Positions 1 through 476 of a stretch of 476 nucleotides of DNA are shown in pieces (the stretch's first letter is position 1; every line of letters starts with the position of its first letter). The notes below the pieces were generated by a model. That model had not been told where the DNA came from. It searched no databases and was given only the letters and a program-made list of their open reading frames with translations. Position numbers and translations under genes: made by a program. Origin of the DNA: Escherichia coli (lineage in GTDB: Bacteria > Pseudomonadota > Gammaproteobacteria > Enterobacterales > Enterobacteriaceae). The stretch lies in assembly GCF_003334255.1 (NCBI RefSeq), contig NZ_QOWU01000233.1. One strand, given 5' to 3'.

Positions 1-72
1 TTGTAAATCCCCGTGAAGGCAGATGCGTGCCAGTGGCGGTGACGCCAGACAGAATGCGTTCGTCGTTGCCAT
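1..72 (-). CDS. I: Tail assembly protein I homologue, N-terminal 24 codons only; start codon at 72..70, continues past the window edge. It overlaps the 3' end of K in a different reading frame.
   Basis: ATG at 72..70 on the minus strand, followed by an open frame to position 1 encoding MATTNAFCLASPPLARICLHGDLQ. The ARICL(H/Y)GDLQ segment matches my recollection of the lambda gpI N-terminus (MAATHTLPLASPGMARICLYGDLQ...). A purine-rich Shine-Dalgarno-like sequence lies upstream. The out-of-frame overlap with K mirrors the arrangement in lambda. Confidence 0.75.
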   Translation of the reverse strand, partial: MATTNAFCLASPPLARICLHGDLQ

Positions 73-476
73 TTTTCAGAATACCTCTCCCGTTTGCTCA
101 GTTGTTCAGGAATATGGTGCAGCAGCTCGCCATCACCACAGTAAATGGCGGCATGATTCGGCACCGATGAACCAAAACAGCACAGCAGCACATCGCCCGG
201 TTGTGCTGATGACAACGGCACCTGATACAGCCCTGTGGCCTCCATATTGTCCAGGTAAAGGTTCTGACCGTTGCACCACCAGTCATCCTCACGGTGAAAA
301 TCCGGCATATCAATGCCTGCCAGATGGTATGCATCCCGGAACAGGGTGTAACAGTCCGTCACCCCGTGCGCAAAGCGCCGTCCGGTCAGGTGCGGAACGC
401 AGCGGAATTTGTGAATGTCACCCCGGCTGACCAGCCACCAGGGCAGTGCGCTTTTTATCTGCAGCCGCCGGTCAGC
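1..476 (-). CDS. K: Tail assembly protein K homologue, C-terminal NlpC/P60 (C40 family) peptidase domain; partial at both ends. The N-terminal MPN/JAB domain and the stop codon both lie outside the window.
   Basis: Manual translation of the reverse complement starting at 476 gives an uninterrupted frame: ADRRLQIKSALPWWLVSRGDIHKFRCVPHLTGRRFAHGVTDCYTLFRDAYHLAGIDMPDFHREDDWWCNGQNLYLDNMEATGLYQVPLSSAQPGDVLLCCFGSSVPNHAAIYCGDGELLHHIPEQLSKRERYSEKWQRRTHSVWRHRHWHASAFTGIY. It has the NlpC/P60 hallmarks: a catalytic Cys in the DCYTLF context (codon 353..351), a His in the NHAAIYCGDG context (155..153) and a downstream His pair (119..114). From memory it is near-identical to the C-terminal half of phage lambda gpK. 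There is no stop across 158 codons. Confidence 0.9.
84..91 (-). promoter_or_regulatory. Putative Shine-Dalgarno / ribosome-binding site for gene I, embedded in the K coding sequence
   Basis: Minus-strand sequence GGGAGAGG at 91..84 is followed by an 11-nt A-rich spacer (TATTCTGAAAA) and then the ATG at 72..70. It contains a GGAG/GAGG core complementary to the 16S rRNA 3' end. The spacing is at the long end of the typical range. Confidence 0.45.

Follow-up and report, generated by a model that had tools for sequence, protein, structure and literature searches.

In the reference sequence of phage lambda (RefSeq NC_001416) the end of gene K (14276..14875) and the beginning of the tail gene I (14773..15444) share 103 nt, which are read in two different frames. 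Here we examine the same junction in a 476-nt stretch of Escherichia coli DNA (contig NZ_QOWU01000233.1; the whole of this stretch is called the window below). The window covers the 3′ portion of a gene K of lambda type, from a phage or prophage, with the start of tail gene I embedded in its −1 (+2) frame, and both genes lie on the minus strand. In most respects the layout is that of lambda: the two products belong to the same two protein families, the frame offset is the same, the ATG of I falls on the Lys-Trp codons of K with GAGAGG 11 nt upstream of it, the overlap is of 103 nt (for the window, as judged through its relatives) and the K tail is of equal length. The window differs from lambda in that its I product shares about 70% identity with lambda gpI, and in that codon 14 of I, which is ATG in lambda, is CTG here, the lineage of the window being without lambda's second possible start. 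A preliminary description of the window, made from its letters alone, had regarded the junction as conserved lambda architecture rather than something new. We agree, the same layout being found in the lambda RefSeq record and the ATG and Shine-Dalgarno (SD) sequence of I recurring in 68/68 of the lambda-like haplotypes introduced below; as the K/I overlap is already in the lambda reference annotation, there is nothing new in its presence here.

A more distant version of this junction is carried by the ES18-, mEp021- and vB_SosS_Oslo-like phages. They share with the window an out-of-frame overlap of K (a C40 peptidase) with I, the +2 offset, an I start and a GGAG SD inside K, and the same first β-strand (β1) of I, but differ in having a 58-nt overlap, an ATG or GTG directly at β1, no 13-residue N-terminal extension and an I product about 30% identical. 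The start of I in the ES18-like phages is located 55 nt before the K stop, with a GGAG(G/A) run 8–9 nt upstream of it, and the annotation of mEp021 records the 58-nt K/I overlap together with a ribosome-binding site (RBS) feature. The K tails of 30 ES18-/mEp021-/Oslo-like haplotypes are recognisably homologous (HS.WRH...GIY.D). The offset and the RBS inside K being shared across this set, the out-of-frame K/I junction is old and general. Stop/start overlaps of 1–4 nt, which are the model applied by automated annotation, also join adjacent operon genes with overlapping frames, as here; they differ from the present case, in which the supported start of I precedes the K stop by 100 nt.

The protein products correspond to the TAPI/TAPK pair (PMC1779556). 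Like TAPI, I has an N-terminal MoaD/ThiS/ubiquitin-like β-grasp ending in Gly-Gly (..GAGKGG), a Gly-rich hydrophobic linker and a C-terminal domain, and like TAPK, K has an NlpC/P60 domain, which lies in the window, and a JAMM motif, which lies just upstream in relatives. In contrast to the present analysis, that study treats the function of the proteins, namely a predicted cleavage of I by K, and not the gene overlap. In lambda virions gpK is absent and only residues 134/135–223 of gpI are resolved (PMC10721106, PMC12617516), a fragment and an absence that would fit the proposed trimming of I by K (PMC1779556; predicted cleavage).

Translation of the minus strand from position 476 gives a single open frame, that of K, across all of 1..476 (...SEKWQRRTHSVWRHRHWHASAFTGIY). 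This frame runs past both ends of the window; its last full codon is 5..3, its peptide in the window terminates in ...HIPEQLSKRERYSEKWQRRTHSVWRHRHWHASAFTGIY, and the two bases left over, 2..1, begin the next codon. Translation from position 474 gives the I frame, ...F*KMATTNAFCLASPPLARICLHGDLQ, in which a TGA stop (76..78) is followed, after one codon, by the ATG of gene I (70..72) and then by an open frame that continues to the window edge (K-M-ATTNAFCLASPPLARICLHGDLQ); the first I residues after the Met include the peptide ATTNAFCLASPPLAR (residues 2–13). Since bases 2..1 are the first two of a K codon, all 72 nt of the segment 1..72, which corresponds to I codons 1–24, are read in two frames within the window. 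The A of this ATG is the last base of the K Lys codon AAA, and its TG opens the K Trp codon TGG. The SD-like run GGGAGAGG is found at 84..91, 11 nt 5′ of this ATG and inside the K codons Arg-Glu-Arg (CGG GAG AGG). Between the upstream stop and the conserved I domain the ATG at 72..70 is the sole canonical start, and the TGA at 78..76 rules out, in the sequence of the window, a longer I open reading frame (ORF) or an upstream read-through fusion of K to I. The two-frame reading of 1..72, both peptides, the ATG and the SD at 91..84 had all been set out in the preliminary description and were all reproduced by translation.

That a second frame stays open for 24 codons would carry no significance on its own; its homology does. 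The 24-residue I peptide alone, on whose homology the preliminary description had made its reading depend, matched the profile PHROG 4244 (tail protein) with E=2.6e-13 over profile positions 1–24, and a profile search with the K frame matched PHROG 30 (minor tail protein) with E=7e-98. Completed from its closest relative, the long form of I aligns over residues 1–224 to residues 1–223 of lambda gpI (PDB 8iyk_I, E=1.5e-96).

As the preliminary description had held, the stop codon of K falls outside the window. Viral contigs were scanned with window bases 1–60, which gave 92 loci, and 93 fetched sequences share this terminal 60-mer. In 93/93 of these relatives the K stop is located 31 nt past window position 1, where nine further K codons (NDLAAASACM or close variants) are followed by TGA. 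Added to the 72 nt of the window, these 31 nt give a full K/I overlap that would be 103 nt long, with the position of the K stop taken from the relatives.

To this we added a second sample, unbiased toward the overlap, which was drawn with a degenerate pattern on the Cys motif of K, a site well away from the overlap. It returned 120 viral contigs comprising 98 distinct haplotypes, 68 of them lambda-like and 30 ES18-/mEp021-/Oslo-like. All 68 lambda-like haplotypes have an ATG at −100 relative to the K stop and an I frame that is free of stops, and the SD run, either GAGAGG or GAGGGG, is likewise invariant (68/68). The GAG and AGG codons of the SD show zero synonymous variation, while the adjacent CGN Arg codon takes cgg, cga, cgt and cgc; E. 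coli seldom uses AGG for Arg. Frozen SD codons beside a variable CGN codon point to selection for an RBS that would serve the −100 ATG.

The part of I that this ATG supplies reaches into its conserved domain. Pfam Lambda_tail_I (PF06805) matches the long form at residues 15–97 (model positions 3–83 of 83, E=7.6e-16), where I residues 25 onward come from the closest relative and not from the window. An AlphaFold2 model of I, built with a 30-sequence alignment, has β1 at residues 14–19 and a second strand (β2) at 29–33, then a helix and further strands, with a predicted local distance difference test score (pLDDT) of 70–80 over about residues 11–94. In Foldseek searches the model matched SAMP1, MoaD, ThiS and ubiquitin over their full lengths with a target-normalised TM-score of 0.69–0.76, and this predicted ubiquitin-like fold is in line with what Iyer et al. 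2006 had predicted from sequence (PMC1779556). Residues G21, L23, R25 and L32 hardly vary, even when relatives of about 30% identity are compared, and G96 is invariant. Both N-terminal β-grasp strands of I are encoded within the overlap. Within the window, the segment 1..33 (I codons 14–24) holds the start of the Lambda_tail_I domain, or ubiquitin-like β-grasp, with strand β1 (RICLHG), as placed by Pfam and AlphaFold2, and belongs to the part of the overlap in which the substitution classes described next demonstrate selection in both frames. Codon 14 is CTG in the window type and in 30/68 lambda-like haplotypes, which leaves the −100 ATG as the only canonical start that supplies β1 in the lineage of the window.

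In raw diversity the overlap (0.13) is close to the rest of K (0.15) and has about half the value of downstream I (0.285); being so similar to the rest of K, it is no conspicuous conservation island. Its codon-position periodicity is flattened. The dual-coding signal appears only once substitutions are classed by their effect in each frame. Every possible single-base change was classed in this way and then scored as seen or not seen among the 68 lambda-like haplotypes. Across the whole overlap, 13/145 (9%) of the changes that are non-synonymous in both frames were seen, compared to 22/76 (29%) of those synonymous in I only (p=2e-4). Changes synonymous in K only were seen in 30/67 cases (45%), fewer than the 116/171 (68%) of K-synonymous changes seen in the K-only region (p=2e-3). 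Over I codons 14–33 both contrasts are present: 16/42 (38%) of the changes synonymous in I only were seen against 9/97 (9%) of the doubly non-synonymous ones (p=1.6e-4), and 14/39 (36%) of those synonymous in K only against 110/158 (70%) in a K-only control scored with a pseudo-frame (p=1.6e-4). In this control, confined to the K-only region, pseudo-synonymous changes were not enriched. Over I codons 2–13 the corresponding values were 6/34 (18%) for changes synonymous in I only, 4/48 (8%) for changes non-synonymous in both frames and 15/25 (60%) for changes synonymous in K only, and neither contrast was significant.

Judged by these substitution classes, purifying selection demonstrably acts in both frames over I codons 14–33 (window 33..1 and the 31 nt beyond), whereas window 69..34 (I codons 2–13) evolves essentially as K sequence. 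The view of the preliminary description that every substitution in the stretch is constrained by two proteins at once thus holds from I codon 14 onward (33..1 and beyond) but not for codons 2–13 (69..34), where I-frame constraint could not be measured above background. For the 13 added N-terminal residues of I this leaves a disordered tail that tolerates change or, with lower likelihood here, a stretch that is not translated.

We consider it highly probable, for this explanation as a whole, that gene I starts at the ATG at 72..70 through SD-directed internal initiation; that ribosomes initiate at this very ATG is what we infer, indirectly, from the completeness of the I domain and the selection on codons 14–33. 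Several points weigh against this explanation. That the ATG is conserved does not count as separate evidence, since the Lys-Trp codons of K dictate its bases, and the conservation of the SD is the more telling of the two. I codons 2–13 are without I-frame constraint and would look just the same without any translation in I. At 10–11 nt, the distance from SD to ATG is above optimal. The NCBI automated annotation of close relatives favours later I starts, and the 103-nt length of the overlap rests on relatives, as the K stop lies outside the window. The one searchable supplement of the lambda cryo-EM/mass-spectrometry paper contains no N-terminal tryptic peptide of gpI, gpI being identified there by a single peptide, and cryo-EM resolves gpI residues 134/135–223 only (PMC10721106, PMC12617516).

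Among the other possible starts, one at codon 14 (window 33..31) fares best, improbable though it is. This is the position of Met14 in lambda and of the first Met or Val of the ES18/mEp021-like I proteins, and its use would give a 64-nt overlap with codons 1–13 untranslated. The Pfam domain and the ES18-like I proteins start exactly there, the absence of I-frame constraint on codons 2–13 is as such a start would have it, and codon 14 is ATG in 36/68 and GTG in 2/68 lambda-like haplotypes. Yet in the window and in 30/68 haplotypes it is CTG, from which E. coli initiates very poorly, and the CTG of the window lacks an SD-like run before it. A start at codon 14 is also at odds with the invariance of the −100 ATG and its SD (68/68), and with SD codons AGG and GAG that are synonymously frozen while the neighbouring CGN codon varies.

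We judge it very improbable that I begins with the GTG that shares bases with the K stop (GTGA, a 4-nt overlap) by way of termination-reinitiation, the I-frame ORF of 72..1 then being an untranslated by-product. Bacterial genes that are coupled most commonly overlap by 4 nt, and the GTG is present in 61/68 lambda-like haplotypes. It is moreover the annotated I start (193 aa) in the two closest annotated relatives, a phage record and a RefSeq PGAP record, and the clusters of 193-aa I proteins have thousands of NCBI members. However, 7/68 lambda-like haplotypes have ATA or GTA in place of the GTG, most ES18-like ones are without it, and the 30 nt 5′ of it contain no purine-rich, SD-like run. A start at this codon, Val34, would delete positions 1–21 of the Pfam Lambda_tail_I model, about a quarter of the domain, and both strands β1 and β2 of the predicted β-grasp, from a segment (I codons 14–33) that is under I-frame purifying selection and in which G21, L23, R25 and L32 are kept down to about 30% identity. 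The preliminary description had named a K stop immediately left of the window, together with a better-supported I start elsewhere, as the finding that would count against it; a stop is indeed located directly to the left of the window and is overlapped by a GTG that NCBI annotation uses, but the GTG start is the less well supported of the two. That both starts are used, the −100 ATG for a full I containing the ubiquitin-like domain and an internal start for a shorter isoform, as with lambda S107/S105 and C/Nu3, is scarcely credible: many relatives hold several in-frame starts (−100, −61, −34 and −1) and virions show no more of gpI than its last 90 residues (PMC10721106, PMC12617516), but no internal start is conserved across the lambda-like set, none has an SD, and the virion fragment is more simply explained by N-terminal disorder or by proteolytic removal as predicted by Iyer et al. 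2006 (PMC1779556).

The start of I is annotated inconsistently in public records (compare relatives L001 3504-4085, L094 3504-4085 and L205 1381-1728). Lambda RefSeq and mEp021 use a start inside K, in the region of window 72..1, and PGAP and phage pipelines often pick the GTG on the K stop or other internal codons. The short annotations of I make up clusters of 193, 204, 209 and 210 aa with thousands of NCBI members, ES18 gp28 being shorter still, and these short forms are without β1 and β2 of the ubiquitin-like domain.

With the ATG at 72..70 as the start, expression of I would proceed by de novo initiation at this codon, led by the purine-rich SD at 91..84 that is written into the Arg-Glu-Arg codons of K. 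The same RNA would be read for both proteins across 103 nt, 72 of which are in the window. In the K frame these would encode the end of the NlpC/P60 domain and the conserved C-terminal tail of K, and in the I frame the 13-residue N-terminal extension and the first two β-strands of the ubiquitin-like domain. The SD-to-ATG spacing of about 10–11 nt, possibly together with the traffic of K ribosomes, would hold the output of I low, and such a low output would fit the three copies of gpI present per virion (PMC10721106, PMC12617516).

The preliminary description had gone further in proposing that initiation of I is probably coupled to the ribosomes that translate K. Our computations lend this no support. 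The supported I start is not near the K stop but precedes it by 100 nt, and the GTG that does overlap the stop is neither conserved nor preceded by an SD. A distance of 100 nt probably exceeds the range of termination-reinitiation, as a terminating ribosome would have to travel far backwards; initiation would then have to be internal and SD-led. In addition, the 101-nt RBS region is less structured than its shuffled controls, with a minimum free energy (MFE) of −18.4 kcal/mol compared to a mean of −23.7 for its shuffles (z=+1.64), 191/200 of which fold at least as well. No fold is common to the haplotypes, the MFE partners of the SD varying from one haplotype to another, and K ribosomes would thus find no masking structure that is conserved and could be opened. 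Masking of the I RBS by RNA structure was rejected on both counts, the region being less stable than its shuffles and without a common fold.

Programmed −1 frameshifting, as used by lambda G/GT, was also rejected, as the I-frame TGA at 78..76 stands directly before the ATG; on reading the sequence no X XXY YYZ slippery heptamer was found in the K frame at GAA AAA TGG. Fusion proteins that join the NlpC/P60 domain of K to I are present in databases (P0007, P0018, P0079 and P0095). They are singletons, each switching frame elsewhere in the overlap, and are sporadic indels or assembly errors, not products of programmed frameshifting. Literature searches yielded nothing usable on K/I translation or on K/I-specific ribosome profiling.

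We also entertain, as an unlikely possibility, that the long overlap is itself regulatory and more than a compact packing of genes. K-elongating ribosomes and the long SD spacing would then throttle I and so set how much of it, as the predicted ubiquitin-like substrate, is made per JAB/NlpC-P60 peptidase K, and the 13-residue extension would be functionless in I, present only because the nearest usable start upstream of β1 sits in a segment of K that cannot change.

The remainder of the window is K. The partial gene (1..476, minus strand, frame from 476) encodes a homologue of the tail tip assembly protein K, and relatives 93.7–96% identical annotate it either under that name or as a C40 family peptidase. 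Its NlpC/P60 (C40) peptidase domain occupies 42..383 (Pfam PF00877, residues 32–145 of the fragment, model positions 1–105 of 105, E=2.1e-13), the final ten or so residues of which fall within the I overlap. The Cys codon of the conserved motif HGVTDCYTLF, at 351..353, encodes what we take, from knowledge of the family, to be the catalytic cysteine of this domain. Directly upstream in relatives is the JAMM metalloprotease motif of K (HSHPGGLPWLSEAD; L094 2764-3507); the window opens two codons before the end of this motif (476..471), so that the last Asp is its second codon. K is thus a two-peptidase protein (JAB/JAMM and NlpC/P60), of which only the second domain is inside the window. On the opposite strand, a plus-strand ORF at 23..430 (135 codons, antisense to K) was rejected as a gene, as it is broken by stops in 26/68 lambda-like and 30/30 ES18-like haplotypes; such frequent stops mark it as a by-product of the codon pattern of K. 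A scan for promoters and terminators across the window found none.

Two further differences among the relatives concern the other end of K, outside the window. At about coordinate 14267 of lambda NC_001416 (L204 1134-1330) there is a 1-nt gap, GGAGGC-TATTT where relatives have GGAGGCGTATTT, which puts the first 45 K codons (MTQTESAIL...) out of frame. Lambda K is annotated with 199 aa from an internal Met, while relatives encode 247 aa. The gap represents a genuine frameshift or, alternatively, a sequencing error of long standing. In Escherichia phage PhiR12_1 (L001 703-2715) about 2 kb are inserted between L and K, comprising an antirepressor-like gene and three hypothetical genes, two of these on the opposite strand, whereas K comes directly after L both in lambda and in L094, a prophage of E. 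coli.

The best matches to the window are PhiR12_1, with 93.7% identity, and E. coli prophages with up to 96%, and similar sequence is present in 4,366/5,426 complete E. coli genomes. E. coli genomes contain thousands of lambda-type tail modules, of which this locus is another, and its biological importance is small. Its practical value is for annotation: pipelines commonly truncate I, with the loss of two β strands, and the evidence favours the long form.

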